Under the pieces are notes generated by a model, which saw nothing but the letters and a program-made list of their open reading frames with translations, did no database searches and had not been told where the DNA came from. Shown here piece after piece: positions 28,800 through 45,201 of a stretch of DNA of 64,000 nucleotides (position 1 is its first letter; the number at the start of each line of letters is the position of its first letter). This DNA comes from a virus. The translations under genes were made by a program, and so were the position numbers. The stretch covers positions 1 through 64,000 of IMG/VR virus record IMGVR_UViG_3300002143_000172; one strand, 5' to 3'.

Positions 28800-28833
28800 A
28801 TAATTGATTATACACTAATAACATATTTAAGTC

Positions 28834-28862: not shown

Positions 28863-28863
28863 A

Positions 28864-29096: not shown

Positions 29097-29099
29097 ATA

Positions 29100-29258: not shown

Positions 29259-29264
29259 AACTAT

Positions 29265-30656: not shown

Positions 30657-30679
30657 CTCGTTCTCCTTTCGTTAAAATG

Positions 30680-30740
30680 ACAGGTTGCTTATTTTTCAAT
30701 TACAAGTTGAATTTTAAAATTTGCTGAACGCAACCTAAAA
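30680..30740 (-). ncRNA. CAGCAA-family RNA copy 3 with anticodon-arm mimic (UGU)
   Basis: AGGUUGC/GCAACCU stem; UUCAA-CUUGUAA-UUGAA. Confidence 0.75.
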
Positions 30741-30765
30741 ACTTATTTTCTTAACTTAAACATTT

Positions 30766-30794
30766 ATTATAGACGAAATAGACATCGTTGTCAA
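30766..30794 (-). promoter_or_regulatory. sigma70-type promoter for copy 3, DUF2828, copy 2, copy 1
   Basis: TTGACA-17 nt-TATAAT. Confidence 0.85.
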
Positions 30795-30812
30795 CATCTA
30801 TTTCATCTATTT

Positions 30813-31424: not shown

Positions 31425-31648
31425 CTCCTTTCTTTTTTAACGCGGCCAATGCGGCTCGCTTTGTTCCAATCGTAAGCAACGCCATCTGGGCACTTGCCGT
31501 CCTTGATACTGTCAACTCCAAATATACCTACCATTTCAAAGTCTGCACCTTTAATGGTCACAAACTCGTTCATTGACTTAGCAACATTCATTGCCTCGGC
31601 AAGTGTAAGAACTTTGAAGATTTCTTCTTTTCCTATTACTTTATACAT
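31421..31648 (-). CDS. hypothetical protein
   Basis: 75 aa ORF after promoter. Confidence 0.7.
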   Translation of the reverse strand: MYKVIGKEEIFKVLTLAEAMNVAKSMNEFVTIKGADFEMVGIFGVDSIKDGKCPDGVAYDWNKASRIGRVKKERS

Positions 31649-31654
31649 GCCTTA

Positions 31655-31683
31655 ATTATAACATGATTTTACCACTTTGTCAA
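31655..31683 (-). promoter_or_regulatory. sigma70-type promoter
   Basis: TTGACA-17 nt-TATAAT. Confidence 0.85.
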
Positions 31684-32240
31684 TCATTATCTTCTAACTT
31701 TCTACGCTCGCGCCTTGCTTGGGCAAGCATAAAAACCTTTTCATTATCATTGGTCCAATCTACTGCGTGTTTGGGTACAATTAACCCAGAATCCAATGTC
31801 ACACCATTAATGGTGTGAGGCTCATTCTCATCATAAGTCCACCCTAGGTGCTTCATCATACGATGCTTGACACATAGGTTAGGACTGCGGAACACTTCTG
31901 TGTCATCAAAGCCCATCATAACGCCAACCTCGCATACTGCTCCACTACGGCACACACCTGCATGACAATGAACAACGACATTCATACGATTGTCTAATGC
32001 ATGTTGTAGCAAACGGACAAGCTCTGCGGCCTGTTCATTACTACATCGCATTGCTTCTTCCAAACACTCATCGTGTTCTTCAATATCTAAAAATTGGAAT
32101 TGATGGACTTCTTTGAATTGGTGCTTGGGAGTTGGAAAATCTCCGGGCGGATCACAAATTTGGATCAGCATGGAGTTAGGACCACAATCGTGGTGCCGAC
32201 CTTGCTTAATATCAGATAACGCTACATTTTCAATCCACAT
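31680..32240 (-). CDS. Cys-based (PTP/DSP-like) phosphatase
   Basis: HCHAGVCRS (CX5R); start MWIEN after AGGAG. Confidence 0.85.
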   Translation of the reverse strand: MWIENVALSDIKQGRHHDCGPNSMLIQICDPPGDFPTPKHQFKEVHQFQFLDIEEHDECLEEAMRCSNEQAAELVRLLQHALDNRMNVVVHCHAGVCRSGAVCEVGVMMGFDDTEVFRSPNLCVKHRMMKHLGWTYDENEPHTINGVTLDSGLIVPKHAVDWTNDNEKVFMLAQARRERRKLEDND

Positions 32241-32700
32241 ACCAAATCTCCTTAAATCCTTCTTCTTCAGTGGGCTCTTCCCAACTGGCAATCATACTGG
32301 CAACAACATGTTCCGGAACGATCTTTCCAGACTCCCATCGACTGGATAGTCGACGAACAAGTTCTTTATGTTCAGGTGTACGAAACACCACAGCAATATG
32401 TTCATAGTCTGGCAACATACGAAACTTCTTAGCCCGACTAGCAATCGTAGTGCTGGTTTGATCCCAAATAATATCATTGCCCATTTCTCGAATGGCTACA
32501 ACATTTGCGGCCATTAAATTAACTGCCTTGGGCATGTATTCTGTAAAAATTTCCGAATAGGTTTTCTTCAAGCGAGCGGCTTCTAATTCAACCCAATAGT
32601 CAGTCGATACGATATGACATCTCTTGGCCCATTCTTGATTGGCGATCCAGGTACTTTTGCCCGAACCAGGCACTCCGACCATCTGATAACATCTTAGCAT
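32230..32700 (-). CDS. AAA_33 / polynucleotide-kinase-like P-loop kinase
   Basis: GVPGSGKST, VSTD, WDQT. Confidence 0.85.
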   Translation of the reverse strand: MLRCYQMVGVPGSGKSTWIANQEWAKRCHIVSTDYWVELEAARLKKTYSEIFTEYMPKAVNLMAANVVAIREMGNDIIWDQTSTTIASRAKKFRMLPDYEHIAVVFRTPEHKELVRRLSSRWESGKIVPEHVVASMIASWEEPTEEEGFKEIWYVD

Positions 32701-32721
32701 ATAATACTTTCTAAAATAGGT

Positions 32722-32796
32722 TGGTCCCGCTAGGAGGAATCGAACCTCCATCTTAACCTTAGGAGTGTTTTATTCTATCCATTGAACTATAGCGAG
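32722..32796 (-). tRNA. tRNA-Arg(CCU), weak anticodon stem
   Basis: cloverleaf, loop CU-CCU-AA, CCA. Confidence 0.75.
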
Positions 32797-32809
32797 GGGT
32801 TAATAACAC

Positions 32810-32838
32810 ATTATAGCATGATAAATGATTTGTGTCAA
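32810..32838 (-). promoter_or_regulatory. sigma70-type promoter
   Basis: TTGACA-17 nt-TATAAT. Confidence 0.8.
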
Positions 32839-32845
32839 ATGAAAA

Positions 32846-32907
32846 ACAGGATCCGCTTTTTTCAAAGTTGAAGTTTGATTTTTTAATTTGCTGAAAGGAT
32901 CCTAAAA
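32846..32907 (-). ncRNA. CAGCAA-family RNA copy 4 with anticodon-arm mimic (UCA)
   Basis: AGGAUCC/GGAUCCU stem; UCAAA-CUUCAAC-UUUGA. Confidence 0.75.
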
Positions 32908-32908
32908 C

Positions 32909-32985
32909 TGGTTGCAGTGGCAGGATTCGAACCTGCGATTCCCGGCTTATGAGACCGGACGGATAGACCACTTCCATACACTGCG
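32909..32985 (-). tRNA. tRNA-fMet(CAU)
   Basis: CAU anticodon, C1:A72 mismatch. Confidence 0.85.
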
Positions 32986-32990
32986 ATAAT

Positions 32991-33020
32991 TGGTGGAGGA
33001 GACAGGGATCGAACCGATAT
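32991..33020 (-). pseudogene. 3' remnant of a tRNA-Ala
   Basis: CGGUUCGAUCCCUGUCUCCUCCACCA without 5' half. Confidence 0.7.
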
Positions 33021-33023
33021 CTC

Positions 33024-33536
33024 CTAAATGGTGGAGGTTAAGGGGATCGAACCCTTAACTCTGCCTTGCAAAGGCAGCGTGTTCCCATTAGCACTAAACC
33101 CCCATTTGTATTCAACTGCTTGCTCTATTAAAGGAGCAACTTCGTCTTTCCATTTGCTATGTACCATTTCGTGATGATTTGGACATAATGGTATTAAGTT
33201 CTGCGGATCGTTATTATCGTGATTCTCATCTATATGATGTATTGCTACAATCTTATCAAATCCGCAAATAACACATTCGTGTTTCCAATGCTGTAAAGCA
33301 ATAGTCTTATAATGCGTAGCATTATCATTCCACCACTCTTGTCTATTGTTAGCACAACTACGACTACAGAACTTTGCTCGTTCATATGTCTTAGTTTTTA
33401 TGCGTCCTTCAAATATAAACTCTGTACCACAGCGTTCACATTCTTTAGTATGTTTTGCAACAGGACCAAATCGTTTATCGTTCTTTTCCTGTTGTAGGAG
33501 TTTGTATTGTTCAGTGTTATATTTTCCGTTGTTCAT
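33024..33536 (-). CDS. HNH homing endonuclease; C-terminus runs through tRNA-Ala
   Basis: KFCSRSCAN, CVICG, HHID, NLIPLCPNHH. Confidence 0.9.
   Translation of the reverse strand: MNNGKYNTEQYKLLQQEKNDKRFGPVAKHTKECERCGTEFIFEGRIKTKTYERAKFCSRSCANNRQEWWNDNATHYKTIALQHWKHECVICGFDKIVAIHHIDENHDNNDPQNLIPLCPNHHEMVHSKWKDEVAPLIEQAVEYKWGFSANGNTLPLQGRVKGSIPLTSTI
33029..33103 (-). tRNA. tRNA-Ala(UGC)
   Basis: cloverleaf, G3:U70, CCA. Confidence 0.9.
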
Positions 33537-33567
33537 ACTTTATTTATCATAAAGTGCGAAATACGAA

Positions 33568-33596
33568 CGCTGTTCTATCAACTGAGCTACACCCCC
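33568..33596 (-). pseudogene. 5' remnant of a tRNA-Ala
   Basis: GGGGGUGUAGCUCAGUUGAUAGAACAGCG then HNH promoter. Confidence 0.7.
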
Positions 33597-33637
33597 ATTT
33601 ATTCTTTTCTGCTAACAATCCTACAAGGGAACAAACT

Positions 33638-33714
33638 TGGTCGGAGTACAAGGATTCGAACCTTGGACCTCCTGGTCCCAAACCAGGCGCACTACCAGGC
33701 TGTGCTACACTCCG
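33638..33714 (-). tRNA. tRNA-Pro(UGG)
   Basis: canonical cloverleaf. Confidence 0.95.
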
Positions 33715-33721
33715 AATATTC

Positions 33722-33796
33722 TGGTGGGTGATGAGAGGATCGAACTCCCGACAAACTGCGTGTAAGGCAGCGACTCTACCGCTGAGCTAATCACCC
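33722..33796 (-). tRNA. tRNA-Val(UAC)
   Basis: canonical cloverleaf. Confidence 0.95.
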
Positions 33797-33801
33797 AAAT
33801 A

Positions 33802-33875
33802 TGGAGCGGGATGGGAGAATCGAACTCCCAACTTCAGTTTGGAAAACTGAGGTAATACCATTTTACGAATCCCGC
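33802..33875 (-). tRNA. tRNA-Gly(UCC)
   Basis: canonical cloverleaf, U73. Confidence 0.95.
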
Positions 33876-34016
33876 ACTCTCTAATCAAATACATCCATGC
33901 CGTTTTCCTAGAGGGTGGCCGTTCCCAATACCTAGACTACATCTAAGTTAAATGTGTTTTAAAAAAGTTTATCACAGATATTTAGTTTATCAATTTAGTG
34001 GTATATAAATATCTTG

Positions 34017-34697
34017 ATGAATATCGATCACAATCCTTATCAATGCTACGCCAATCAAGAATTGAAATGGCTCCCAATGGATACGGAAAATTTGTATAAA
34101 CGAAATCTCAAAGTTAACTATTTTCTTCTTGAAAAATTTAATTGGCTAAATTCAAATTTTACTTATAAATTTAACAGCCAAGGATTTCGTTGCGATGAGT
34201 TTACTAACAGTCCTTCTATTGTTTTTTTAGGATGTAGTATAACAGTAGGCATTGGAATACCTGTAGAAACAACCTGGGCAAGTTTAGTATCTAATCAATT
34301 AAATCTTTCTTGTTATAACTTAGGTATAGGCGGCTCATCAAACAATACTGCATTTCGATTAGCACATATATGGTTAAAAAAAATTAAACCTAAAGTGGTT
34401 GTATTTTGTCAAACCTATCCAGAAAGATTAGAAGTGTTTAACGAAAATGGAATAATATCTAATATAGCATCGGATTGCGGTGAGTTTTATAATCACTGGT
34501 TGTCCAATGAAAACAACAGCGCATTAAACCAAATTAAAAACAGGTTAGCAATTCAACAGTTATGCAATTCTTTTGATATTAAATTTGTGCATACCAGTGT
34601 GCATAATTTTGAATTTATTGATCAAGCAAGAGACCTGGCACATCCAGGAATTACATCAAATCAAAAGTTTTCGAAGTTAGTGCTAGAACTGATATAG
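34017..34697 (+). CDS. SGNH-like hypothetical protein
   Basis: FNSQGFR, LGCSITVGIG, NLGIGGSSN, ARDLAHPG. Confidence 0.7.
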   Translation: MNIDHNPYQCYANQELKWLPMDTENLYKRNLKVNYFLLEKFNWLNSNFTYKFNSQGFRCDEFTNSPSIVFLGCSITVGIGIPVETTWASLVSNQLNLSCYNLGIGGSSNNTAFRLAHIWLKKIKPKVVVFCQTYPERLEVFNENGIISNIASDCGEFYNHWLSNENNSALNQIKNRLAIQQLCNSFDIKFVHTSVHNFEFIDQARDLAHPGITSNQKFSKLVLELI

Positions 34698-34705
34698 TTA
34701 TAAAA

Positions 34706-34910
34706 GTGTTACTGCCACTTCCACCACAGAAGCCCAATAACTGAGTAGTTACCCTGTCCATAACATTTATTCTTATGGGATGGCGTTAGACCACACCCTA
34801 GACAGTTCTCGGTATTCCCTAAAGAGGAACCGTAAGGTCAAGTTCTAGTGTACCCCCTGGTCTCTCGTTACAGGGACGCTCTTTTATTTACGGCAAAGAG
34901 TAAACCGGGT
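34706..34910 (-). ncRNA. unknown multi-helix RNA (about 205 nt)
   Basis: ORF-free interval with at least five predicted helices, directly 3' of tRNA-Thr. Confidence 0.55.
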
Positions 34911-34915
34911 TATTC

Positions 34916-34989
34916 TGGTGCCCCTTGACAGAATCGAACTGCCATCAACGGATTACAAAACCATTGTATTACCATTATACTAAAGGGGC
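34916..34989 (-). tRNA. tRNA-Thr(UGU)
   Basis: cloverleaf, CCA. Confidence 0.9.
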
Positions 34990-35017
34990 CTTAAGTTTTT
35001 TGTAACACTTCATTATT

Positions 35018-35257
35018 TCACTTATTTTTAGATCCTAATTTATATTCTAAATCTTTAGAAGCATCTAGTATTGTATCTTCGGTGCTCAATATATCTTGAT
35101 ACTCATTCTTACTTACACCTGTATTATCTTCTACCGGAGTATCTGGAATTAGTTTCTTCATATATGTTGGAACATGTTTCCCAAAGATACTTTCAAAATT
35201 ATTATCAAAAGTTTTCCCATCCACACTTTTTGGACGAGGCCTCGAACCTTTACTCAT
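35018..35257 (-). CDS. small phage protein
   Basis: MSKGSRPRP...FDNNFESIFGK. Confidence 0.7.
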   Translation of the reverse strand: MSKGSRPRPKSVDGKTFDNNFESIFGKHVPTYMKKLIPDTPVEDNTGVSKNEYQDILSTEDTILDASKDLEYKLGSKNK

Positions 35258-35481
35258 CTAATCTTCCTTAAATGATCTCTACCAATTTTACCTTCTTCAA
35301 TTTCTTTTAAGGCCAATACTGCGGCGGTACTTCCGTTGTTGTTTTCTACCAACGGCATTGCACCACGCTTCAATTCTCGAACACGGGTTGATGCAATTAA
35401 TACCAAGTCAAATCTACTGCCCCCAACATTCTTAACACATTTTTCAATGTCGTTCATTGTTCGTTCTAGTTTTTTTGTCAT
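35254..35481 (-). CDS. rpoZ: RNA polymerase omega subunit homologue
   Basis: SRFDLVLIASTRVREL and ALKEIEEGKI motifs. Confidence 0.85.
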   Translation of the reverse strand: MTKKLERTMNDIEKCVKNVGGSRFDLVLIASTRVRELKRGAMPLVENNNGSTAAVLALKEIEEGKIGRDHLRKIR

Positions 35482-35503
35482 AGTTGCCTTAGTTAAAAAA
35501 TTG

Positions 35504-35587
35504 TGGTGCCCCAGGCGAGACTCGAACTCGCAACCCTTTCGGGGACGGCTTCTAAGACCGCTGTGTAAACCATTCCACCACCGGGGC
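35504..35587 (-). tRNA. tRNA-Leu(UAG)
   Basis: class II cloverleaf. Confidence 0.95.
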
Positions 35588-35645
35588 ATAATAAAATACA
35601 TTGTAGCAGGATATTTATATCTTGTCAACCTGCTTAAAACAAAAT

Positions 35646-35722
35646 TGGTGGGCCAGATCGGATTCGAACCGATGATCAACGGCTTATGAGGCCGCTGCTT
35701 TAGGCCTCTAAGCTACTGGCCC
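35646..35722 (-). tRNA. tRNA-Ile2/Met(CAU)
   Basis: CAU anticodon, GGGCC acceptor typical of Ile2. Confidence 0.85.
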
Positions 35723-35745
35723 AATTTTAAATACTAAATATTGTT

Positions 35746-36321
35746 ATGAACTTTAACATCTCTGTAGATACACAGTATGGCATAATGCTTAGTGGCGGTA
35801 TTGATAGTGCTATATTGTTCTATCTGTTAATTAAAGAGGAACCAAAAATAAGACTCCAACCGTTTACTATTCCCAAAGTTGACGGCGCATACTTATATGC
35901 TGATCCGCTCATTGATTATTTTAATAATAAATTTAACTTAACAATTCCACACACGATTAAAGTAGGTGATCCGACTTTACATCACACAAAACAGGGTCAA
36001 AGTGGATATACTGATATTCGAAAGTTTTATAAAAATATACAGATCGTATTCTGTGCTCTTAACGCAGTTCCTTTAGAATTACAAGACGGTCGTCATCCTA
36101 TAAGGCTGATGCACGGACCTACTAACCTTAAATTGCCATTTGTTAATATGTTCAAGGATCAAATTCTTCAAATTATGTATGATGAAGGGCAAACTGATCT
36201 TATTGATCTCACCCATTCGTGTACAGAAAGAACTGTGGGACGATGTAATCATTGTTGGCAATGCGGTGAACGCAGTTGGGCATTTAATAAACTAAACAAA
36301 GTTGATACCGGAACAAAATAA
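35746..36321 (+). CDS. QueC-like PP-loop protein
   Basis: SGGIDS and SC...CNHCWQCGER. Confidence 0.75.
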   Translation: MNFNISVDTQYGIMLSGGIDSAILFYLLIKEEPKIRLQPFTIPKVDGAYLYADPLIDYFNNKFNLTIPHTIKVGDPTLHHTKQGQSGYTDIRKFYKNIQIVFCALNAVPLELQDGRHPIRLMHGPTNLKLPFVNMFKDQILQIMYDEGQTDLIDLTHSCTERTVGRCNHCWQCGERSWAFNKLNKVDTGTK

Positions 36322-36323
36322 CA

Positions 36324-36397
36324 TGGTGCCCGGAGCCGGACTCGAACTTGTGATAAAGGCTTATCAAGCCTCCGTTATACCGTTTAACTACAGAGCT
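36324..36397 (-). pseudogene. chimeric pseudo-tRNA (Ile(GAU) 5' part fused to Leu-type 3' end)
   Basis: T-stem ACAAG/CCGGC unpaired; 3' end nearly identical to adjacent tRNA-Leu(UAA). Confidence 0.7.
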
Positions 36398-36409
36398 GTC
36401 TTACTAACT

Positions 36410-36708
36410 TGGTGCTCCGAGCCGGAATCGAACCGGCACGCCATTACAGCGAGGGATTTTCTTACCACTATAGTTTTCACTACCTTTGCAGTTTGGTGGT
36501 CTGGACTATACCTTCATCATAGCATTACTGCCTTAGATGCTCGCCGTCTAGTCTCTACACGTTCAAAGTAATTTCTTACTAAGCTTCGCTCGGTATTAGC
36601 ATGTTAAAGCCTTCACCGAATTTGACGAGTTCTACTCCCGGCATTTCCACCGGGGCACTCAAATTTTACTCTCAAGTCCCTTGTGTCTACCTATTTCACC
36701 ATCAGAGC
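36410..36708 (-). tRNA. tRNA-Leu(UAA) split by group I intron
   Basis: exons 36674-36708 and 36410-36460 join to AGGGA-CU-UAA-AA-UCCCU. Confidence 0.92.
36461..36673 (-). mobile_element. group I intron (IC3-like, no ORF, 213 nt)
   Basis: P AAUUCGGUGAA, Q AAUACCGAGC, R GUAGAGACUAGACGG, S AAGGUAUAGUCC, terminal G, inserted after U34. Confidence 0.92.
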
Positions 36709-37293
36709 AATTAATCTTTTCATTCTTTCGTAGTTGCCGCCTTTTGCAGCTAGTCCTACTTCTAATAATGCTTGTCGTATGTTACTACATTTTGCATATG
36801 CTGTCAATAGCTCTTGGTCAGTTACTTTAACTTTCCCCGAGTTGATATTTCTACCTCTCCATGTTGGAGTTAATGCATGACAGTTACAACATAATAGTTT
36901 AAGATTTTCCCTTGTATTATGTTTGTTATCACCGTCGACATGCTCTAATTCTAACGGTATAGGACTGGACTGCCACTCGGTCAATCCACACCCTTCACAT
37001 TGGTAACCTCGCTCTTGTATAAGAGCCGATTTGTGATTACCAATACCATCGTACTCAAATTTTGTATTGGAATAATTACCTTTATTCCAATTCATTTTAG
37101 TTTTGGTGTCCGCTGGCAAATTTGCATACCTGATTTTTGCAGGCAAACGATTACCTAACTCGTATACTGCTTTAGTTCTTTCTGAGTTAATTGCTTTAAG
37201 TACACTGCATCCTGCGGGTCTGGCGCAACAGCAATTTTTACCATTTTTTAAAACAAACTTAGATGCAGTGTTGCATCCGTAATCACATAACAT
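36691..37293 (-). CDS. HNH homing endonuclease; stop codon inside tRNA-Leu 5' exon
   Basis: CEGCG, LELEHVDG, NLKLLCCNCHA. Confidence 0.9.
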   Translation of the reverse strand: MLCDYGCNTASKFVLKNGKNCCCARPAGCSVLKAINSERTKAVYELGNRLPAKIRYANLPADTKTKMNWNKGNYSNTKFEYDGIGNHKSALIQERGYQCEGCGLTEWQSSPIPLELEHVDGDNKHNTRENLKLLCCNCHALTPTWRGRNINSGKVKVTDQELLTAYAKCSNIRQALLEVGLAAKGGNYERMKRLIALMVK

Positions 37294-37370
37294 AACATAC
37301 TCCTGTTATGTGTATTTAGTAGGTAGGCACAGAATGCTTAACTTAAACTACCAATTACTCTATAAAAACT

Positions 37371-37438
37371 TGGTACACCGTGCGGAATGCGTACCCGCCG
37401 TGAAAGGGTGATGTCCTAGGCCTCTAGACGAACGGGAC
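37371..37438 (-). pseudogene. tRNA-Glu(UUC) pseudogene, T-arm deleted
   Basis: GUCCCGUUCGUCUAGAGGCCUAGGAC 5' half, no UUCGA loop. Confidence 0.75.
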
Positions 37439-37517
37439 AAAAATGTTACTTTTAATTTTTAAAGAGCGTGTTAATTTCTTAACTTATGCATTATTATAGC
37501 ATACTACTGCAGGTGTG

Positions 37518-38195
37518 TCAAGCAGTTTTAACGCTTTGGGAAGGTAATATAAAGTTTCCCGCCTGTGCTTTTTCGATAACTTGCGAAAAATTCATCGATA
37601 AACATTTCAACCTTAGGAACACCCGCTGTTTATCATTGTTCCTTACACCGTGTATGGTATGACCGTTAAACATGCTTGGGTGATCTAGACTGTAATTATA
37701 ACTATAAATTAGATCTCTTTTTGGTATTACTGGATAACTTGTTGCCCGCTGCCAAACAGACCCCGGTGGCATCCTGTAAAAATCAATTGGACTTGCATCA
37801 CTATCGGGTAAGATCGGGAACATGATCCCACAATACATATGAAAGTCTATGTGAGGTACAAAATTATAACCTGGACCATAGATTAAGATATCTACATCGG
37901 CTCCCTGCAACGGTTGGTCAAAGTTGAATTGTTCCACTAATTTTTTTATCGGATCAAAATCTTTTACATGTTTACCCAATGTAAAATAGGTATCGATCGA
38001 ATCAAATAGTCCAGCTGAATCTTCCTTAAACCGTTTATTGTGCGTCATGTTGTTTGATGCGTGTTTATTGGAAAACTTATTCATTAGTTTGCCAAAACTG
38101 ACTTGGTATTGTTTTACACTTTCATACCAATCTTTTAACTCTTCTCGATCGTATGTTATTTCGTCAAACACTACATGATGATCGAATACTTGCAT
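37518..38195 (-). CDS. 2OG-Fe(II) oxygenase-like protein
   Basis: PHID, HGVRN...R. Confidence 0.7.
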   Translation of the reverse strand: MQVFDHHVVFDEITYDREELKDWYESVKQYQVSFGKLMNKFSNKHASNNMTHNKRFKEDSAGLFDSIDTYFTLGKHVKDFDPIKKLVEQFNFDQPLQGADVDILIYGPGYNFVPHIDFHMYCGIMFPILPDSDASPIDFYRMPPGSVWQRATSYPVIPKRDLIYSYNYSLDHPSMFNGHTIHGVRNNDKQRVFLRLKCLSMNFSQVIEKAQAGNFILPSQSVKTA

Positions 38196-38217
38196 GGAAT
38201 TATTTAGTAACCTAACT

Positions 38218-38291
38218 TGGTGCTCAAGAATAGAATCGAACTATTGATTGCTCCTTACCATGGAGCCGTTATTCCATTTAACTACAAGAGC
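38218..38291 (-). tRNA. tRNA-Thr(GGU)
   Basis: cloverleaf with A32 and two U-U acceptor mismatches. Confidence 0.8.
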
Positions 38292-38298
38292 AAAAATA

Positions 38299-38390
38299 TG
38301 GTGGAGAGTGAGAGATTCGAACTCTCGGACCCACTTGCGTGGATCGACAGGTTAGCAACCTGCTGCCTTAGACCACTCGGCCAACTCTCC
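38299..38390 (-). tRNA. tRNA-Ser(GCU)
   Basis: class II cloverleaf, A73. Confidence 0.9.
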
Positions 38391-38400
38391 TAAATCTATT

Positions 38401-38497
38401 CGGTACGACCGGTAGGGTTCGAACCTACAAGGGCTATGTCTAAGACGGTGCCCCATCCTGCTCAACGCAGAGGTCTGCCAATTCCACTCACGGTCGC
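38401..38497 (-). ncRNA. tRNA-like RNA without a normal anticodon loop
   Basis: acceptor, D and T arms intact; 5-nt loop, very long variable arm, ends ACCG. Confidence 0.7.
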
Positions 38498-38541
38498 AAG
38501 TATATTATATACTTATCCGTGGTACTTGTCAACTAAAATAT

Positions 38542-38616
38542 TGGTCCGCCCACCAGGAATCGAACCTGGAATCACACTTTAGAAGAATGTTGTTATATCC
38601 ATTTAACTATGGGCAG
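38542..38616 (-). tRNA. tRNA-Arg(UCU)
   Basis: cloverleaf. Confidence 0.9.
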
Positions 38617-38711
38617 TGAGTCTCTAGTATAACATACTATTTTGTTTATGTCAATTCTGCTCATATAAATAGCTTTATGAATGTTATTTTTTGGAACGGC
38701 GGAATTAAAAT

Positions 38712-38785
38712 TGGCAGGGGCACTAGGGATCGAACCTAGACTAACAGAGTCAAAGTCTGTTGTGCTACCATTACACAATGCCCCA
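38712..38785 (-). tRNA. tRNA-Gln(UUG)
   Basis: cloverleaf. Confidence 0.9.
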
Positions 38786-38795
38786 ACAAAAAGGT

Positions 38796-38945
38796 TTTCA
38801 AGAGCCCAACTATCCTCCTGGGAGGACTCATTGGATTGTCTCGACAAGGCAAGTTTATACAACCGTCATCGCCGTCTGCGGTGTCATACAGCCAACCAAA
38901 ACTGTACTAGGCTTGCGGGACTCGAACCTTGCGTCTATCTTGAAA
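38796..38945 (-). ncRNA. unknown 150-nt structured RNA with T-loop
   Basis: UUUCAAGA/UCUUGAAA closing stem, GG-UUCGAGU-CC, several hairpins. Confidence 0.6.
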
Positions 38946-38947
38946 TT

Positions 38948-39022
38948 TGGTAGTAATGGAAAGAGTCGAACTTTCACAGCGCACCGTATGAAGGTGTTGC
39001 ACTACCATTATGCTACATTACC
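38948..39022 (-). tRNA. tRNA-Met(CAU)
   Basis: cloverleaf, paired 1:72. Confidence 0.85.
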
Positions 39023-39094
39023 ATATGTAAACACACTCAGAGGAGGCGTTCTCCGGCGCCGGAGTACCAAGCTGATCGTAAATGTGTTTGCATA

Positions 39095-39168
39095 TGGTAG
39101 GACCACCCGGACTCGAACCGGGATAGATCGGTTAAAAGCCGACTATTCTACCTTTGAATTATGATCCC
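39095..39168 (-). tRNA. tRNA-Lys(UUU)
   Basis: cloverleaf. Confidence 0.9.
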
Positions 39169-39172
39169 GTAT

Positions 39173-39247
39173 TGGTCCATGCTCTGAGAATCGAACTCAG
39201 TTCCTCCGGTTAAGAGCCGGTTACTTCGCCACTAAAGTTTAGCATGG
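39173..39247 (-). tRNA. tRNA-Lys(CUU)
   Basis: cloverleaf, atypical A8. Confidence 0.85.
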
Positions 39248-39328
39248 GTTGTGTATTAAATTGATTTAATGTGCCAACCCTAGACCAATACGGGATCTAG
39301 AGCGACACTATCGTTTACCTCGTTTCAT
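39242..39328 (-). promoter_or_regulatory. mini-ORF MKRGKR* (39308-39328) plus switch hairpin antisense to tRNA-Lys junction
   Basis: AAGGAG SD; 15-nt perfect inverted repeat 39283-39297 vs 39163-39177. Confidence 0.65.
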
Positions 39329-39329
39329 G

Positions 39330-39458
39330 TCAATCTCCTTTTTTGATATTACGATTTTGTGCTTGGCGTTCTGATTTCCAGAACACTCGTTTCCAATCTT
39401 TCAAATGCTTCCACCATTGTGGAGGCGCTGTCAAGTTACCCTTTTTGACATTTGCCAT
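39330..39458 (-). CDS. 42 aa basic Trp-rich peptide (not in ORF track)
   Basis: MANVKKGNLTAPPQWWKHLKDWKRVFWKSERQ...*, AAGGAA SD. Confidence 0.7.
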   Translation of the reverse strand: MANVKKGNLTAPPQWWKHLKDWKRVFWKSERQAQNRNIKKGD

Positions 39459-39485
39459 ACTGGTTCCTTTTTTAATTTAAAACTA

Positions 39486-40130
39486 TTATTTGCTGTGCAG
39501 TAAATTTACAAACTCTAACAATAGAGCATGATGTCTGCGATTATGCCAATGCTCCGGCATCCATGTATAACTGTCATACCAAAATTTTTCACTTTCTAAA
39601 TGACAGCCCATTAAACCTAAATTTCCCTGTATTATTGCCATAGGGTCTCCGTTGGCATAGGTAGCAACGGTAGTAAACTTTGTTTGATCTCCAATGAAAC
39701 AACATCCGTCATTGTAGAACATCTTGTCCGACTGTCCATTCCAGGTAACTGATATTGCTTTAGTATGTGGTCTATGAGTATCTGCGGTAGGTTGCTTGTA
39801 ATACTGTACAGCGTCTACATCCTCAAGCAGATCAAAGTAATAATGATTGGCCCAATATGCGCCCATACATATTCCTAGATACTTGCCCCCACTATTAACA
39901 AACTCTTTAATAAGATCGGCGTTATTTTTTAGCAGATAATCGTAGCTATCGGAATTTCCAAAACCACCGGGAAATGCAACTATATCAACATCATTGAAAA
40001 AATCTTCTTCTAGCTCGTGCTTGGTAAAGATTTTAAAATCATAATGGCTTTTAAGTGCTTGCATGATACCATTGCCCGACTGTACAGAACACATCGGTTG
40101 ATGTATGAACAGTGCAATCTTAGGTTTCAT
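39486..40130 (-). CDS. BPL_N / class I glutamine amidotransferase-like protein
   Basis: FPGG, GGKYLGICMGAY, HLE. Confidence 0.8.
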   Translation of the reverse strand: MKPKIALFIHQPMCSVQSGNGIMQALKSHYDFKIFTKHELEEDFFNDVDIVAFPGGFGNSDSYDYLLKNNADLIKEFVNSGGKYLGICMGAYWANHYYFDLLEDVDAVQYYKQPTADTHRPHTKAISVTWNGQSDKMFYNDGCCFIGDQTKFTTVATYANGDPMAIIQGNLGLMGCHLESEKFWYDSYTWMPEHWHNRRHHALLLEFVNLLHSK

Positions 40131-40143
40131 AACTTTATTTATA

Positions 40144-40219
40144 TGGCACCCCCGGAGAGAATCGAACTCCCATTCCTGCGTTCGTAGCACAGTGTATGAA
40201 TCCATTATACGACAGGGGT
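40144..40219 (-). tRNA. tRNA-Arg(ACG)
   Basis: cloverleaf. Confidence 0.9.
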
Positions 40220-40231
40220 ATAAATAATTTT

Positions 40232-41437
40232 ATGAAAAACTGGGAAAATGTTAAAAAACTGCACATAGAAATAAGTTCTCAATGTAACGCTGTATGTCCT
40301 ATGTGTACTCGGTATCCAACCGCTAGTTACTTTGAGCACCCGCATATACAGAAAGACTGGATGTGGACTGTAGACACAGTAAAACAACGACTACCTAAAG
40401 AAGATTTAATAGGTATAACTTCATACCTTATCAATGGCACCTTTGGAGATTTTATTATGAACTCCGAAGCAATAGAAATAATACAGTATCTAAATGAATG
40501 TTCACCCGATGCTAGTCTTTATATCAATACCAACGGTTCTGCTAGAAACGCAAGTTGGTGGAAAGAACTTGCAAAGATTCCTAATGTAGTAGTAAATTTT
40601 GCAATCGACGGATTAGAAGATACTCATTCACTTTACAGGAGAAACACTAGCTGGTCTAAGATTATTGACAATGCTAAAACATTTATAAATTCGGGCGGTC
40701 ATGCAGAATGGACAATGATTATATTTGAGCATAATAAGCATCAAGTTGATGCTTGCTTTAATCTCAGCACAACTATTGGATTTAAATCATTTACCAGCCG
40801 AAATAGCGACCGAATCAATACTGATGTTCTTGATAAAAATGGCCTTAGTAAATACGGAATAAAATCTGCCGATCCTACCATTACCAGTTATCGATCCTAC
40901 CATCAATTACAGTGGAAAGAAACTATATTAAAGAAAGGTCAGTTTTACGCAAAGCAAACATACCAAACCGGCGCATTGCCTAGTATAGACTCATGCTCGA
41001 GTATTTCGGAAAGTTCGGTATACATAGGATCAAATTGGTCCGTAATGCCGTGTTGTTTCTTAGGAAACATTACGATGGGTAGGCAGACTGATCATAGGTG
41101 GGCAAATTTCTTAGATGCACTCACTAACGCAGGATTTTCCTTAACCGACTTTGATGCAACAAGTACCAAAACAGTTCGTCAAGTATTTGAGCAAGGGTTT
41201 GACTGGGTATACAATCGCATATTAACCGACAATGCGTTAGTTGCTTGTTCAACAAATTGTCATCCTGTGGACAGTGCATTTCAGAGAAGTATGGCAAGTC
41301 GTCAACATGAAACCCTTAAAAATATGGTGCCGCCCCCAGGGATCGAACCTGGTTCCTCGGTGCTTCAAACCGGTGCTATGACCACATCAGCTAAAGCGGC
41401 ATTGGTACCAGCGGAGGGTATCGAACCCTCTCACTGA
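40232..41437 (+). CDS. radical SAM / SPASM protein
   Basis: CNAVCPMC, NTNGS, VMPCC; 3' end overlaps tRNA-Phe antisense. Confidence 0.9.
   Translation: MKNWENVKKLHIEISSQCNAVCPMCTRYPTASYFEHPHIQKDWMWTVDTVKQRLPKEDLIGITSYLINGTFGDFIMNSEAIEIIQYLNECSPDASLYINTNGSARNASWWKELAKIPNVVVNFAIDGLEDTHSLYRRNTSWSKIIDNAKTFINSGGHAEWTMIIFEHNKHQVDACFNLSTTIGFKSFTSRNSDRINTDVLDKNGLSKYGIKSADPTITSYRSYHQLQWKETILKKGQFYAKQTYQTGALPSIDSCSSISESSVYIGSNWSVMPCCFLGNITMGRQTDHRWANFLDALTNAGFSLTDFDATSTKTVRQVFEQGFDWVYNRILTDNALVACSTNCHPVDSAFQRSMASRQHETLKNMVPPPGIEPGSSVLQTGAMTTSAKAALVPAEGIEPSH
41325..41400 (-). tRNA. tRNA-Phe(GAA)
   Basis: cloverleaf. Confidence 0.9.
41403..41430 (-). pseudogene. 3' tRNA remnant (T-arm plus GGUACCA)
   Basis: GAGGG-UUCGAUA-CCCUC then CGCUGGUACCA. 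Confidence 0.65.
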
Positions 41438-41447
41438 TGTTATCTAT

Positions 41448-41524
41448 TGGTACCTCCGGCGGGAGTCGAACCCCCAACCACCTGCTTCTAAGGCAAGCCG
41501 CACTACCAATTAGCGTACGAAGGC
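41448..41524 (-). tRNA. tRNA with Leu(UAG) anticodon, short variable loop
   Basis: 77-nt class I cloverleaf. Confidence 0.85.
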
Positions 41525-41529
41525 ATATA

Positions 41530-41606
41530 TGGTACCCCGTGTCTGATTCGAACAGACATCCAACTCCTTTTGAGAGAATTCGCACTACCAATTAGCGTAA
41601 CGGGGC
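41530..41606 (-). tRNA. tRNA with Leu(CAA) anticodon, short variable loop
   Basis: 77-nt class I cloverleaf, same D-arm as neighbour. Confidence 0.85.
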
Positions 41607-41616
41607 ATAAAAACTT

Positions 41617-41692
41617 TGGGGTGCTCTATGAGGATCGAACTCATACTACCGGGGTCACAGACCAGTGTGCAGGCCACTACACTAAGAACACC
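41617..41692 (-). tRNA. tRNA-His(GUG)
   Basis: G-1:C73. Confidence 0.9.
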
Positions 41693-41698
41693 ATTGTT

Positions 41699-41775
41699 TG
41701 GAGCACAGGGTGGGACTCGAACCCACGACTTTACGGATTTGCAATCCGCTACATTGGCCGCTCTGTCACCTGTGC
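41699..41775 (-). tRNA. tRNA-Cys(GCA)
   Basis: cloverleaf, U73. Confidence 0.9.
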
Positions 41776-41782
41776 ATATAAT

Positions 41783-41856
41783 TGGAGCGGGTAGCGAGAA
41801 TCGAACTCGCGATTAAACTTCGGCAAAGTTTTAGGTTACCATTACATCATACCCGC
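41783..41856 (-). tRNA. tRNA-Gly(GCC)
   Basis: cloverleaf, U73. Confidence 0.9.
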
Positions 41857-41864
41857 ATTGTTTG

Positions 41865-42464
41865 TTAGCCAAATAATATTTTTTTGGCATCTTTAAAATA
41901 TGTATTACTTTGAATATTTTCCATTATTCTTAGAGTTAATACAACTCTAAGTGAGTTTGATCGACTATTGTCAAAATCATGAAAAATATCTGTGTTAAAC
42001 AATATACATTCATTTGATTTTGCGACCATACTTTTTATCGGTGTATGTTTTGTTTTATCGAAACCAGCACATTCTCTTGAAGTTTTTTTCTGCAAATTGT
42101 CTATTAGATACTCTTTTAAATCTTCATCACTATACCAATTAGTAACACACGCTTCGTCTAAAATTTGAACGGTATAGTTGATACTAAATCGATCAGACAT
42201 TCCGTCCTTGTGTGCCCTGTAATATCCACCGGGCTTTGTCATAAACAAACTAACACGATGTGGCCTTAATGGCATTTGCTTTGCCATTGGTAGTAATGAA
42301 AGAAGATGATTCGCTTGATCTTTTGGAAAAGGGTAATGAATAAAAGTCTCATTATCCTCGATTGAAGGCATATTCTTTTTACAATAGTCAACGATCTTAT
42401 CTAGCCCGTCGTGGGTAAATCTAATATAGTACGGACTGCAATCTTCGATTATTGTATAGGTCAT
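41865..42464 (-). CDS. 2OG-Fe(II) oxygenase-like protein
   Basis: AHKDG, FNTDIFHDFDN...R. Confidence 0.7.
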   Translation of the reverse strand: MTYTIIEDCSPYYIRFTHDGLDKIVDYCKKNMPSIEDNETFIHYPFPKDQANHLLSLLPMAKQMPLRPHRVSLFMTKPGGYYRAHKDGMSDRFSINYTVQILDEACVTNWYSDEDLKEYLIDNLQKKTSRECAGFDKTKHTPIKSMVAKSNECILFNTDIFHDFDNSRSNSLRVVLTLRIMENIQSNTYFKDAKKILFG

Positions 42465-42487
42465 ATAACTATTTACAATCTAAAATT

Positions 42488-42579
42488 TGGCGGAAGACGG
42501 AGGAGTCGAACCCCATCCCATTTCTGAGAACCCAGTTTTCAAGGCTGGTCGGCGCACCAACGCACCTGCATCATCTTCC
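42488..42579 (-). tRNA. tRNA-Ser(UGA), 8/4 fold
   Basis: 8-bp acceptor, 4-bp T-stem, G73, long V-arm. Confidence 0.8.
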
Positions 42580-42585
42580 ATAACT

Positions 42586-42659
42586 TGGTCCTCTCGTATG
42601 GAATCGAACCATCATCTACCGGTTATCAGCCGATTGCTCTACCATTGAGCTACAAGAGG
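42586..42659 (-). tRNA. tRNA-Ile(GAU)
   Basis: cloverleaf. Confidence 0.9.
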
Positions 42660-42666
42660 AAATAAA

Positions 42667-42730
42667 ACAGGATGCATTTTTGGCTTTTTTTCAAGAAAAG
42701 ATTTTTAAATTTGCTGGAAGCATCCTAAAA
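42667..42730 (-). ncRNA. CAGCAA-family RNA copy 5 with anticodon-arm mimic (UGA)
   Basis: AGGAUGC/GCAUCCU stem; CUUUU-CUUGAAA-AAAAG. Confidence 0.75.
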
Positions 42731-42732
42731 CT

Positions 42733-42807
42733 TGGCGGTCTGTGGGGGAATCGAACCCCCGTAAGTGGATAGACAATCCACAGTAATAACCTCTATACGA
42801 ACAGACC
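42733..42807 (-). tRNA. tRNA-Asp(GUC)
   Basis: cloverleaf, unusual U37. Confidence 0.9.
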
Positions 42808-42812
42808 TAAAC

Positions 42813-42887
42813 TGGTACTGCGTACGGGAATCGAACCCGTCTCTTTGGCTTGAAGGGCCAAGGACCTACCCAGAAGTCCAACGCAGT
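42813..42887 (-). tRNA. tRNA-Glu(UUC)
   Basis: cloverleaf, unusual C33. Confidence 0.8.
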
Positions 42888-42894
42888 GTAAAAT

Positions 42895-42970
42895 TGGTCT
42901 CGCATGAAGGACTCGAACCTTCGAAATCCTGGCCCCAAACCAGGTGGCATAGCCGCTAACCGAATGCGAG
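42895..42970 (-). tRNA. tRNA-Pro(UGG)
   Basis: cloverleaf. Confidence 0.9.
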
Positions 42971-42977
42971 ATAAACT

Positions 42978-43052
42978 TGGCGTACCGGGAGGGATTTGAA
43001 CCCCCACTAGCAGTTTTGGAGACTGTCGTGCTGCCGTTAACACTACCGATAC
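42978..43052 (-). tRNA. tRNA-Trp(CCA)
   Basis: cloverleaf. Confidence 0.9.
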
Positions 43053-43098
43053 ATAACTTGGTGGACTCAACAAGCTCATGCTTGCATTTGTCCTTAAT

Positions 43099-43173
43099 TG
43101 GTGGAGGCCGAGGGAATCGAACCCTTCTAGTCACGATGCTTGCAAGGCAACGCCGTAGCCCATTACTGCCCCC
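43099..43173 (-). tRNA. non-canonical tRNA-Ala(UGC), reduced D-arm
   Basis: G3:U70, A73, CU-UGC-AA loop, 8/4-like fold. Confidence 0.7.
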
Positions 43174-43178
43174 AATTG

Positions 43179-43721
43179 TTAGACGACAAGTAATTCTTGC
43201 CATCTTATAACTTTTGATTCATCATAAACATCACGCTTACCTTTTCTTGCGTTTTCGCTTGCCGGTAAGTACTGTAAATTGTCTTGATGATGTAGTCCTC
43301 CGTTTGCTAACGGAATCCTATGATCAACTTGATATCCTTCCGGAACAAATTGATAAATTTTTCTGATTAAATCTAAATCAGCATTGTCAGGTATAGCATT
43401 TCTTTTCCGTGCTCTGTAAGCATAGACATTTGCTTTATTACCTGCTCTTTTATGTTCTTCAGTCACTCTGCCTCTATGGTCCCAGTAAGCATTTCTAGCT
43501 TCTGAAATTTTAGCAGAATGTTCTTGTGTCCTAGGAGGAAGTTTTACACCCTTTCTGTTCGGCATTTTAGACTTACCAGAAACAATAGCTTTCTTAACAC
43601 CGTTAGCAATTTTTTCTTTAGTATCTGCTGTTCTAATTCTACTGTTAGCACATGCTCTTGAGCAAAATTTTCCAGATCCAAAAGATCCATTGTGTGTAGT
43701 GTTACATTTCAGACATTTCAT
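43179..43721 (-). CDS. HNH homing endonuclease
   Basis: KFCSRACAN, VDHRIPL, GGLHHQDNLQ, ENARK. Confidence 0.9.
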   Translation of the reverse strand: MKCLKCNTTHNGSFGSGKFCSRACANSRIRTADTKEKIANGVKKAIVSGKSKMPNRKGVKLPPRTQEHSAKISEARNAYWDHRGRVTEEHKRAGNKANVYAYRARKRNAIPDNADLDLIRKIYQFVPEGYQVDHRIPLANGGLHHQDNLQYLPASENARKGKRDVYDESKVIRWQELLVV

Positions 43722-43776
43722 ATTAGTTCTCCTAATTGTATTTATACAATCGTACTCAGCTAATACAAATTACATT

Positions 43777-43852
43777 TGGCTCCCCAGGTATGGATCGAAC
43801 ATACGACATCTTCGTTAACAGCGAAGCGCAACTACCTCTGTGCTACTGGGGA
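43777..43852 (-). tRNA. tRNA-Asn(GUU)
   Basis: cloverleaf. Confidence 0.9.
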
Positions 43853-43886
43853 ATAAATTAGTGAAGGATTTCACGGAATAGAAAAT

Positions 43887-43974
43887 TGGTGAAGAATGAT
43901 GGAATCGAACCACTTGCCGCCACCCCGCTTAACAATGGCCACCGGGTTACAGCCGGCGACGGGGAACATCCTCC
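43887..43974 (-). tRNA. D-armless tRNA-Tyr(GUA)
   Basis: 8-bp acceptor, GCCGG-CU-GUA-AC-CCGGU, long V-arm, 4-bp T-stem, ACCA. Confidence 0.7.
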
Positions 43975-44036
43975 AAAACACACTCTAGCAGTTTATCTTT
44001 CTGCCTCTTTGTACTATGTACTCGGAACGAATGTGT

Positions 44037-44111
44037 GTATTAAAACAAACTGACTAGCTACGCTCCGACACTAACTTCACAGGTTAGCCGTGTGCCAATT
44101 TGCTTTAATAC
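44037..44111 (-). ncRNA. hairpin RNA enclosing anticodon-arm mimic (GUG)
   Basis: 18-bp closing stem; CUAAC-CUGUGAA-GUUAG. Confidence 0.5.
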
Positions 44112-44237
44112 GAACTAATTTTTAGTCCCACAAGAGGGATTCCATCCTAGTCGCCGCCCGTTTAAGACTTGTTTTAAGTGCGTCTTCAGGACCTCGTTTC
44201 CTGGGCATTGCTGCTCTTACTTTCACACTTTGCGATT

Positions 44238-44390
44238 CTAACGACCTCCGCAGAGTATCTCTCGCTTTCTCATAGTTTCATAACTTTCTACAGCTCTTGT
44301 TAACTTGTTCTGAATAAGTTGTTTAACCTGTTCAGGAGTTAGCGTATGCTGTCGAAGCCAATCTACTTCTTTAATCTTTTTCTCTATCAT
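44238..44390 (-). CDS. 50 aa peptide (not in ORF track)
   Basis: MIEKKIKEVDWLRQHTLTPEQVK...CGGR*, AGGAGA SD. Confidence 0.6.
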   Translation of the reverse strand: MIEKKIKEVDWLRQHTLTPEQVKQLIQNKLTRAVESYETMRKREILCGGR

Positions 44391-44763
44391 TTCTCTCCTG
44401 CTCTACAAATTGTTCAAATCTTGTTGCTAGGTCATCATTTGCAGGATCTGTTGGTATGTTGTATGCGTGTATTCTGCGATGGCAGTTAGCACACACTACA
44501 ACACACTTTCTTAGTTCCCTTAAAACAGAACTTATACTTTTTGTTATTTGTCTAATAACCCCTACCTCTTTCTGGCTAGGATCACTATGATGGAAATCTA
44601 AACAAGCAGAGTCGGTCTCGCCGCATCTACTACATTTTAGTGTTCCTTTCCATTCCTGGAAAACATCAAGTAATTCTTTGTATCTGTTTTTTTGATACTC
44701 TAACAACCTTTCTTTGTTCTTTTCGTAAAACTCTTTTCTCTTCTGTTTGTGTTCTTGTTCCAT
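44371..44763 (-). CDS. HNH endonuclease
   Basis: CSRCG, LDFHH, KCVVVCANCHR. Confidence 0.85.
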   Translation of the reverse strand: MEQEHKQKRKEFYEKNKERLLEYQKNRYKELLDVFQEWKGTLKCSRCGETDSACLDFHHSDPSQKEVGVIRQITKSISSVLRELRKCVVVCANCHRRIHAYNIPTDPANDDLATRFEQFVEQERNDREKD

Positions 44764-44829
44764 AAAGTATCTCCTGATACTGTATTTATACAAAAACACA
44801 TTGTTTTTTGTAATATTTTTAAGGACTAC

Positions 44830-44866
44830 AAAAAACGAAACCCCAGGGTTTTTAATCCTGGGGTCC
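44830..44866 (-). terminator. attenuator terminator
   Basis: GACCCCAGG-loop-CCUGGGGUU followed by UCGUUUUUU. Confidence 0.85.
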
Positions 44867-44890
44867 TTGAAGTTGTTGTGTATTTTTGTG

Positions 44891-45022
44891 TTACACTACA
44901 CGCTCCCGGGACCCCTGGCAAATCTCTGGTGTACGATCATTACTTGATAGTAACCAAGAGGTGGGCATAAAGCCTGCCTGTTTGGCATCTAATCTATAAT
45001 AATGTATCGAACAGTTTTTCAT
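44891..45022 (-). CDS. putative attenuator leader peptide (43 aa, all 20 amino acids)
   Basis: MKNCSIHYYRLDAKQAGFMPTSWLLSSNDRTPEICQGSRERVV*; 3' end forms antiterminator. Confidence 0.75.
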   Translation of the reverse strand: MKNCSIHYYRLDAKQAGFMPTSWLLSSNDRTPEICQGSRERVV

Positions 45023-45080
45023 TTGCTTTCTCTTTATTTCCTAAAAATTTACAAACAGCATTATTGCTGCCTATGTGTTA

Positions 45081-45201
45081 ATTATACAGTTATTTAGCAT
45101 CGCTGTCAACCTCTTTTTATATTTTTGACAAAAAAGATTTTTAACAACTCTTCTTCCTAACCATGTGTCTATTGTATATTTATTTAGCATCGCTGTCAAC
45201 C
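45081..45201 (-). promoter_or_regulatory. tandem sigma70 promoters (direct repeat) heading the tRNA array
   Basis: TTGACA-17-TATAAT (45081-45109) and TTGACA-17-TACAAT (45171-45199), both with TAAATA in spacer. Confidence 0.9.

Follow-up and report, generated by a model that had tools for sequence, protein, structure and literature searches.

Why should the tRNA genes of a phage lie behind a transcription terminator, and why should that terminator be preceded by a short ORF in which all 20 amino acids occur? The window that we analysed covers positions 1-64,000 of an uncultured virus record of 159 kb, with an estimated completeness of 44%. It carries 33-35 tRNA genes on the minus strand, from 28725 to 43974, and the leader ORF, its promoters and the terminator lie upstream of them (Table 1). 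We propose, with a probability of about 0.8, that the leader is a ribosome-mediated attenuator that would report a shortage of any aminoacyl-tRNA, with read-through as its default and feedback through the tRNAs that are made. Phages that carry it probably make these tRNAs only when a ribosome stalls for want of any working tRNA. Judged from sequence comparison, the element is real, is widespread in large freshwater phages and is under demonstrable selection. Contigs with homologous loci extend to ~350 kb, and the RNA runs that contain parts of the region come mostly from lake water. Among the INPHARED phages, a search found neither a relative of the region or of the small ORF nor any homologous leader, and hence no cultured relative.

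Table 1. Features of the leader and the tRNA locus (positions in the 64-kb window)
Feature	Position	Strand	Description
Distal sigma70-type promoter	45171..45199	-	-35 box at 45199, 11/12 consensus
Proximal sigma70-type promoter	45081..45109	-	-35 box at 45109, 12/12 consensus
5' UTR hairpin	45051..45074	-	close to predicted transcription start
Leader ORF	44891..45022	-	43 codons, all 20 amino acids
Hairpin within ORF	44924..44960	-	closed by positionally conserved Trp codon
Antiterminator hairpin	44857..44918	-	5' strand 44915-44909 pairs with terminator 5' arm 44866-44860
Intrinsic terminator	44830..44866	-	10-bp stem, 9-nt loop, interrupted U-tract
T4-late-promoter-like motif	44783..44790	-	just behind terminator, part of HNH insertion
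HNH endonuclease gene	44371..44763	-	inserted here; absent from 38 other representative loci examined
~50-aa ORF	44238..44390	-	first gene behind terminator in most homologues, absent in several
Conserved structured RNA	43985..44235 (core 44212-44079)	-	anchor of second homologue set
First tRNA block	38712..43974	-	20 tRNA genes, upstream of first internal sigma70 promoter
Distal tRNA region	28725..38654	-	15 further tRNA genes, eight near-consensus promoters inside

The anatomy of the leader agrees with the preliminary description of this locus, which had reported two tandem sigma70 promoters pointing into an ORF with every amino acid. Both promoters are present and form a 72-nt direct repeat with 74% identity. 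Within the ORF, 18 amino acids are reached by codon 23 (Glu and Val appear later), and the 35 different codons include five for Ser and three for Arg. The leader ATG is also preceded by a promoter in 34 of 38 representative homologues, and the 5' UTR hairpin is missing from those that are nearly leaderless. In most homologues, the hairpin within the ORF closely precedes the antiterminator, at variable spacing; its mean z is -1.6 over 37 homologues, with the Trp codon paired in nearly all, and it is a candidate RNA-polymerase pause hairpin. In 54 of 77 loci, the 130 nt that precede the leader start contain a TAAATA hexamer, which often falls in the promoter spacer (e.g. 45183-45177), so the promoter may additionally be read by a late phage factor. 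The probability that a window such as this one holds all 20 amino acids by chance is ~0.02, whether the null is built from nucleotides or from windows of the phage's own proteins. The window by itself thus proves little, and the complete set is convincing only together with homologues.

A first set of homologues was collected from viral and metagenome contigs with a DNA pattern derived from the terminator, and comprises at least 228 loci with enough upstream sequence; the pattern had one match among prokaryotic genomes. Among the matches listed, the leader ORF is kept in 226 of 228 loci, at 33-53 codons and ending 15-33 nt before the terminator, and of the 177 distinct leader peptides 146 are complete, 27 lack one amino acid and 4 lack two. 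The stop codon is TAA in 172 of these 177. The frame itself is also preserved, in that only 6% of shuffled leaders lack a stop and the alternative frames are interrupted by stops in 37/38 and 38/38 cases. When leaders were dereplicated to <60% identity, all 20 amino acids occurred in 25 of 39 representatives, compared to 1.4 expected from a nucleotide null, 1.7 from pooled composition and 4.8 from column shuffling, although a caveat to this count is that the set is conditioned on the terminator sequence and its members are not fully independent. Windows of the proteome reach all 20 at a rate of 2-4%. The conserved short ORF with excess amino-acid diversity that had been predicted for related phages was therefore recovered over four nulls.

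Because of this conditioning, we built a second set from the conserved RNA motif further downstream, in which the ORF nearest a terminator was chosen and composition was ignored. All 20 amino acids are present in 19 of its 40 leaders at <50% identity, compared to 1.4 expected. We located the excess in both sets. Upstream of the antiterminator, leaders of the first set hold 19.0 amino-acid types versus 15.8 in the null (sd 0.25), and the tail holds 7.2 versus 6.9; the corresponding values in the second set are 17.1 versus 15.0 for the sensed part and 7.7 versus 7.2 for the tail. The excess thus lies almost wholly upstream of the antiterminator, in the codons at which a stall would have an effect.

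The way in which leaders diverge indicates what is being conserved. Leader peptides that are <40% identical and differ by frequent indels still hold 19-20 amino acids. Across 76 disjoint pairs, which show a dN/dS of ~0.5 and 0.8 indels per pair, residues present in a single copy change in 8.6% of cases and those present in multiple copies in 20.5%, with an odds ratio of 0.28 within amino acid. In 36 events of singleton loss, the residue reappears 33 times at a distance of three columns or more, versus 11.8 expected; in the other direction, 31 of 40 are regained versus 13.3 expected. Cysteine, for example, occurs about once per leader (variance/mean 0.12) and is spread across 21 alignment columns. 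Of 38 leaders, 36 contain an internal Met, which implies that the start codon is no substitute for elongator Met. With the amino acids fixed, codon variety modestly exceeds its null (29.5 versus 27.2, sd 0.3), and leaders usually have codons from both boxes of Ser and of Leu. Singleton protection, regain and the modest codon excess together point to selection on the presence of each amino acid, and not on the peptide sequence or on all codons. What the leader covers is amino acids and, in part, isoacceptor boxes. Previously labelled 'pan-codon', it is pan-amino-acid, with 35 of 61 codons used here. We rejected strict coverage of codons, several of which are rare or absent in leaders. There is also an apparent avoidance of C-ending Tyr and Asp codons, which may come from AT bias and hairpin constraints.

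The ORF and the terminator are connected through RNA structure. The long hairpin, whose upper stem contains the leader stop codon, is the minimum-energy fold of 44856-44930 (-28 kcal/mol, z -4.4), and the terminator is the fold of 44825-44880 (-18.4 kcal/mol, z -2.8). Since both folds were recovered and 44866-44860 is common to the two, the mutual exclusivity proposed earlier is confirmed; folding of the whole leader gives the antiterminator form (z -4.1). The terminator has one copy only in the genome and its U-tract is broken by two non-U bases. It was missed by our scanner because of its 9-nt loop. The antiterminator interior aligned with too many gaps in MAFFT for column-wise pair counts, so covariation was measured in the second homologue set, where the terminator is variable, as the duplex energy of the terminator arm with its own or a swapped ORF end. 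The terminator 5' arm pairs with its own ORF end at -12.5 kcal/mol versus -9.7 kcal/mol for swapped ends (0 of 20000 permutations) and at -4.7 kcal/mol with an upstream control, and the covariation between antiterminator and terminator that had been anticipated is thus found.

We also modelled how a translating ribosome would affect these folds by setting a ribosome footprint at each codon. The median terminator probability was 0.17 over most of the ORF and ~1.0 over the last codons in these calculations, which describe equilibrium and not co-transcriptional folding. The modelled switch is sharp and falls ~11 codons ahead of the stop. At the last codon the terminator probability exceeds 0.9 in 36 of 38 homologues, and the early mean is below 0.3 in 25 of 38. 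When no ribosome is placed, equilibrium folding favours the antiterminator in 29 of 38 and predicts termination in the other 9. In this model, therefore, ribosome position would decide the structure: a stall upstream would leave the antiterminator, and arrival at the end would give the terminator. The modelled sensing zone covers approximately codons 1-32, and the last 10-11 codons lie on the antiterminator. In this window, the modelled switch precedes both Val codons, with Glu and Ile-34 located at its noisy edge. The model agrees with the previous suggestion that Val would go unsensed, and the tRNA-Val gene sits past four internal promoters. In roughly one leader in four, Val falls outside the sensing zone, and the position of Glu is borderline.

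If the leader reports on tRNAs, the amino acids that it senses might be expected to correspond to the tRNA genes behind it. The 20 tRNAs of the first block serve 18 amino acids, and the missing two, Thr and Val, are encoded further on. Over homologous loci, we compared the amino acids omitted from the sensing zone with the tRNAs missing from the first block, using margin-preserving swaps as the null. Unsensed amino acids coincide with missing tRNAs in 33 of 46 cases versus 22.4 expected at 90% dereplication, in 23 of 34 versus 16.4 at 70%, and in 19 of 30 versus 15.6 at 60% (p 0.03). Conversely, the first block lacks a tRNA for 136 of 426 amino acids that are sensed. In loci L018 and L096, which are probably one clade, Asp, Glu and Tyr are missing from the sensing zone, and exactly those tRNA genes are located upstream of the leader. 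The comparative data give good support to the reading that selection maintains in the leader ORF every amino acid whose tRNA sits in the unit behind it. As a separate observation, a tRNA-Met(CAU) gene, often with a tRNA-Leu gene, is found just upstream of the leader promoter in L016, L018, L021, L051, L067 and L096; it is 250-720 nt upstream of the terminator, outside the gated unit, and we take it to be possibly an initiator tRNA.

The downstream region is less simple than a tRNA array directly attached to a terminator. As described previously, the array does follow, but the HNH gene, the ~50-aa ORF and the structured RNA come first. A prediction that homologues would likewise have tRNA arrays downstream was borne out, with a same-strand tRNA at most 1.5 kb away in 94 of 94 loci and in 37 of 37 in the two counts that we made, and a median of 19 amino-acid types in the arrays of loci of at least 8 kb. 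The proposed gating of the tRNA set would apply to the first 20 of 35 genes, and for the other 15 the switch is bypassed by internal promoters, the first of which is at 38654-38626. The strongest terminator-like hairpin of the distal region is at 28862-28839, and our scans of the tRNA locus found no strong terminator before 28862. Read-through could thus add to the expression of the distal 15 tRNAs, but not gate it.

A late-type core motif is found upstream of 19 of 192 ORFs, compared to 0.9 expected, and the copy just behind the terminator is a possible bypass of the switch. Such a motif occurs between the terminator and the first tRNA in only 3 of 77 loci. About one locus in three has a consensus promoter behind the terminator and ahead of the first tRNA (24/77 and 36/115), and these promoters together with the late-type motif mean that gating is partial. 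Our search of this 44%-complete record for a sigma factor or a clear match to a T4 capsid was negative. Both HNH genes of the array are preceded by a T4-late-like motif (44790-44783 and 43746-43739, minus strand), and a 5-bp hairpin at 44780-44767 encloses the ribosome-binding site, an arrangement that recalls the translational repression of T4 homing endonucleases.

The elements between terminator and tRNAs raise the question of whether the tRNAs are the main target. The structured RNA is found between terminator and tRNA array in at least 161 loci (e.g. L002:610-743, L008:434-571). It has a covarying 3-bp stem with a 7-nt loop, an invariant G-rich hexamer, and a further stem that bears an invariant anticodon-loop-like segment; RNAalifold recovered only the one covarying stem because the alignment is poor. 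No Rfam family was matched by the leader or this RNA, at gathering thresholds or at E<=10. The ~50-aa ORF and the leader have no credible match in Pfam, PHROG or Atlas, and a protein search with the former gives four close relatives. An attenuator of the same kind could have the structured RNA and the ~50-aa ORF as its main target, the RNA serving, for example, as a processing or processive-antitermination element, with the tRNAs mostly driven by their own promoters and only boosted by read-through. This would account for the presence of the motif behind the terminator in 115 of 138 loci, for a sigma70 promoter between motif and first tRNA in 26 of the 115 (and before the motif in 10), and for the eight promoters within the 16-kb tRNA locus of this window. 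We consider it unlikely, since 79 of the 115 loci have no promoter before the first tRNA, the small ORF is missing from several loci, and a leader aimed at the RNA does not predict that leader content tracks the tRNA content of the first block.

The composition of the leader bears on two further explanations. If the ORF encoded a functional small protein or an arrest peptide, for instance one used in counter-defence, the terminator would be constitutive or peptide-controlled and the amino-acid coverage incidental. A dN/dS below 1 (~0.5) and the fixed positions of the Trp and of a short Asp-Arg-Thr-Pro-Glu motif fit such a peptide; however, the conserved positions coincide with the RNA hairpin, and the leader belongs to no Pfam or PHROG family. 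Protection follows copy number and not position, lost residues are regained elsewhere, and 19-20 amino acids are kept at <40% identity and through frequent indels, all of which makes this explanation very improbable. That an AT-rich short ORF came to hold 20 amino acids beside an ordinary terminator by chance, with the long hairpin as a folding by-product, is conceivable for the window alone, since P ~0.02 is attainable in a genome-wide search. Homologue statistics already refute it, because the pattern recurs in far more than 100 divergent homologues and also in a differently anchored set, with covariation and compensatory regain.

An attenuator acting on the tRNA unit would work as follows. 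Host sigma70 polymerase would initiate at the promoter at 45109 or 45199, and a ribosome would follow on the leader. With all aminoacyl-tRNAs present, this ribosome would reach the last 10-11 codons and cover the 5' strand of the antiterminator, so that the terminator forms and transcription yields a dead-end RNA of ~240 nt. A stall at an earlier codon, or no ribosome loading, would let the antiterminator form first, and transcription would proceed into the small ORF, the structured RNA and the tRNAs. The tRNAs produced would relieve the stall and thereby close the switch, a negative feedback. Of this scheme, the sequence data establish the anatomy, its conservation, the selection on composition, the covariation and the link with tRNA content; the position-dependent switch is modelled, and translation in vivo, pausing, induction and the natural trigger are inferred. 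Host tRNA nucleases, tRNA decay caused by the phage or a shortage of nutrients may each be that trigger. A more tentative extension is that the switch detects the loss of any aminoacyl-tRNA, including through cleavage by host anticodon nucleases, and releases tRNAs as an inducible, self-limiting counter-defence, with the leader re-tuned when tRNA genes move; we regard this as possible, at somewhat less than even odds.

Lake metatranscriptomes provide a view of transcription at the locus. In three of them, possibly from one campaign, the contig depth of the bin 44816-45099 was 891, 737 and 556, compared to at most 172 elsewhere in 8.5 kb, although contig depth sums relatives and tRNAs are poorly captured. 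A 241-nt RNA contig with one mismatch spans 44840-45080 at a depth of 456. We rejected the ends of this contig as transcript ends: its 5' end shares 30 nt with a contig of another run, which is typical of a branch in the assembly graph, and contig ends in general may be such branch points. That the HNH gene is uncovered in RNA contigs carries no evidential weight. The depth over the leader gives a weak hint of abundant terminated leader RNA.

The closest precedent is the mycobacterial whiB7 uORF attenuator, and a broad sensor of uORF stalling is thus already known. In M. smegmatis, the whiB7 uORF contains 19 of the 20 amino acids, sensing works with one Trp codon, and loss of the start codon raises expression and read-through (10.1101/2023.06.02.543512). 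Both systems combine a uORF with a terminator and an antiterminator, and in whiB7 stalling at the codons of many amino acids gives read-through. However, whiB7 uORFs vary in coverage, are enriched in Ala and control a transcription factor, whereas in the viral leaders selection acts on completeness itself within ~46 codons, tRNA genes are the output, and the coverage follows which tRNAs are encoded. Assignment to the whiB7/wblC class does not fit leaders with 5.7% Ala that are followed by a small ORF, an RNA and tRNAs. The E. coli toiL uORF (topAI-yjhQ) also senses many translation stresses by stalling at different positions (PMC12121999), but its targets are a ribosome-binding site and Rho, the signals that it detects are antibiotics, and its design does not serve amino-acid coverage. 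A T-box is not indicated either, as there is no Rfam T-box match and the element has a conserved ORF.

The preliminary description had likened the locus to trp- and his-type attenuators, and this comparison stands: the ORF, the exclusive hairpins, the covariation and the match between codons and product are all found, and the position switch is found in silico. The same attenuator design is used in hisL, pheL, leuL, thrL, the multivalent ilvGMEDA leader and pheM-pheST. The enterobacterial leaders rely on repeated codons for one to three amino acids and regulate genes for biosynthesis or for synthetases, whereas the phage leader contains each amino acid about once or a few times. In trp, the absence of translation favours termination; in the phage leader, the predicted default is read-through. 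What the trp attenuator shares with our element is a short leader ORF, an exclusive antiterminator and terminator, a stop codon that overlaps the antiterminator and a read-out of aminoacyl-tRNA (PMC4615214). Membership in the trp/his/thr/ilv type is not indicated by the composition, which is maximally even, or by Rfam, which gave no leader match at E<=10. The element is a variant of a known mechanism with a new output, tRNA genes, and a new design rule. A literature search, which fell short of most subscription papers, returned no report of attenuation of phage tRNA genes, of a leader with all 20 amino acids or of similar control of tRNA genes.

The purpose of phage tRNAs has long been debated, with codon bias, replacement of degraded host tRNA and escape from anticodon nucleases as proposals. 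In particular, large phage tRNA sets have been proposed to replace cleaved host tRNAs (PMC7824862); this review of tRNA counter-defence mentions no attenuator or leader, and conditional expression is the element added here. Switch-on only at decoding failure would argue for on-demand rescue over constitutive compensation of codon bias, and a 250-nt reporter makes the question testable. If the more tentative counter-defence reading is correct, the leader would be an analogue of the stringent response that uses only the ribosome and needs no sensor protein. The element would provide a small reporter of failing translation, whatever the cause, that requires no protein. The leader also displays an unusual selection on coding sequence, for the presence of each amino acid regardless of position, which can be measured directly here by singleton protection and regain.

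Several other features of the record were observed. A full copy of the element with a 20-amino-acid leader is present at L215:5724-5930, on a 6.2-kb contig of a Polynucleobacter MAG, which is possibly a host lead or a mis-binned phage piece. The first tRNA block includes an atypical tRNA-Tyr (43887-43974, minus strand) that lacks a normal D-arm, has a long variable arm and was missed by default ARAGORN; sequences resembling it were found 3' of the RNA motif in L005, L008 and L017. A radical SAM gene (40196-41437, plus strand) is antisense inside the same block and overlaps tRNA-Phe. The tRNA-Leu(UAA) gene (36410-36708, minus strand) is split by a 213-nt group I intron. A repeat of ~50 nt (family D16) has three copies amid the tRNAs, at 30692-30740, 32859-32907 and 42682-42730, one of which immediately precedes a DUF2828/DUF7788 gene at 30656-29268. 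Finally, a two-piece tmRNA is encoded at genome positions 83521-83942 (minus strand), and tmRNAs were also called in L005, L091 and L096.
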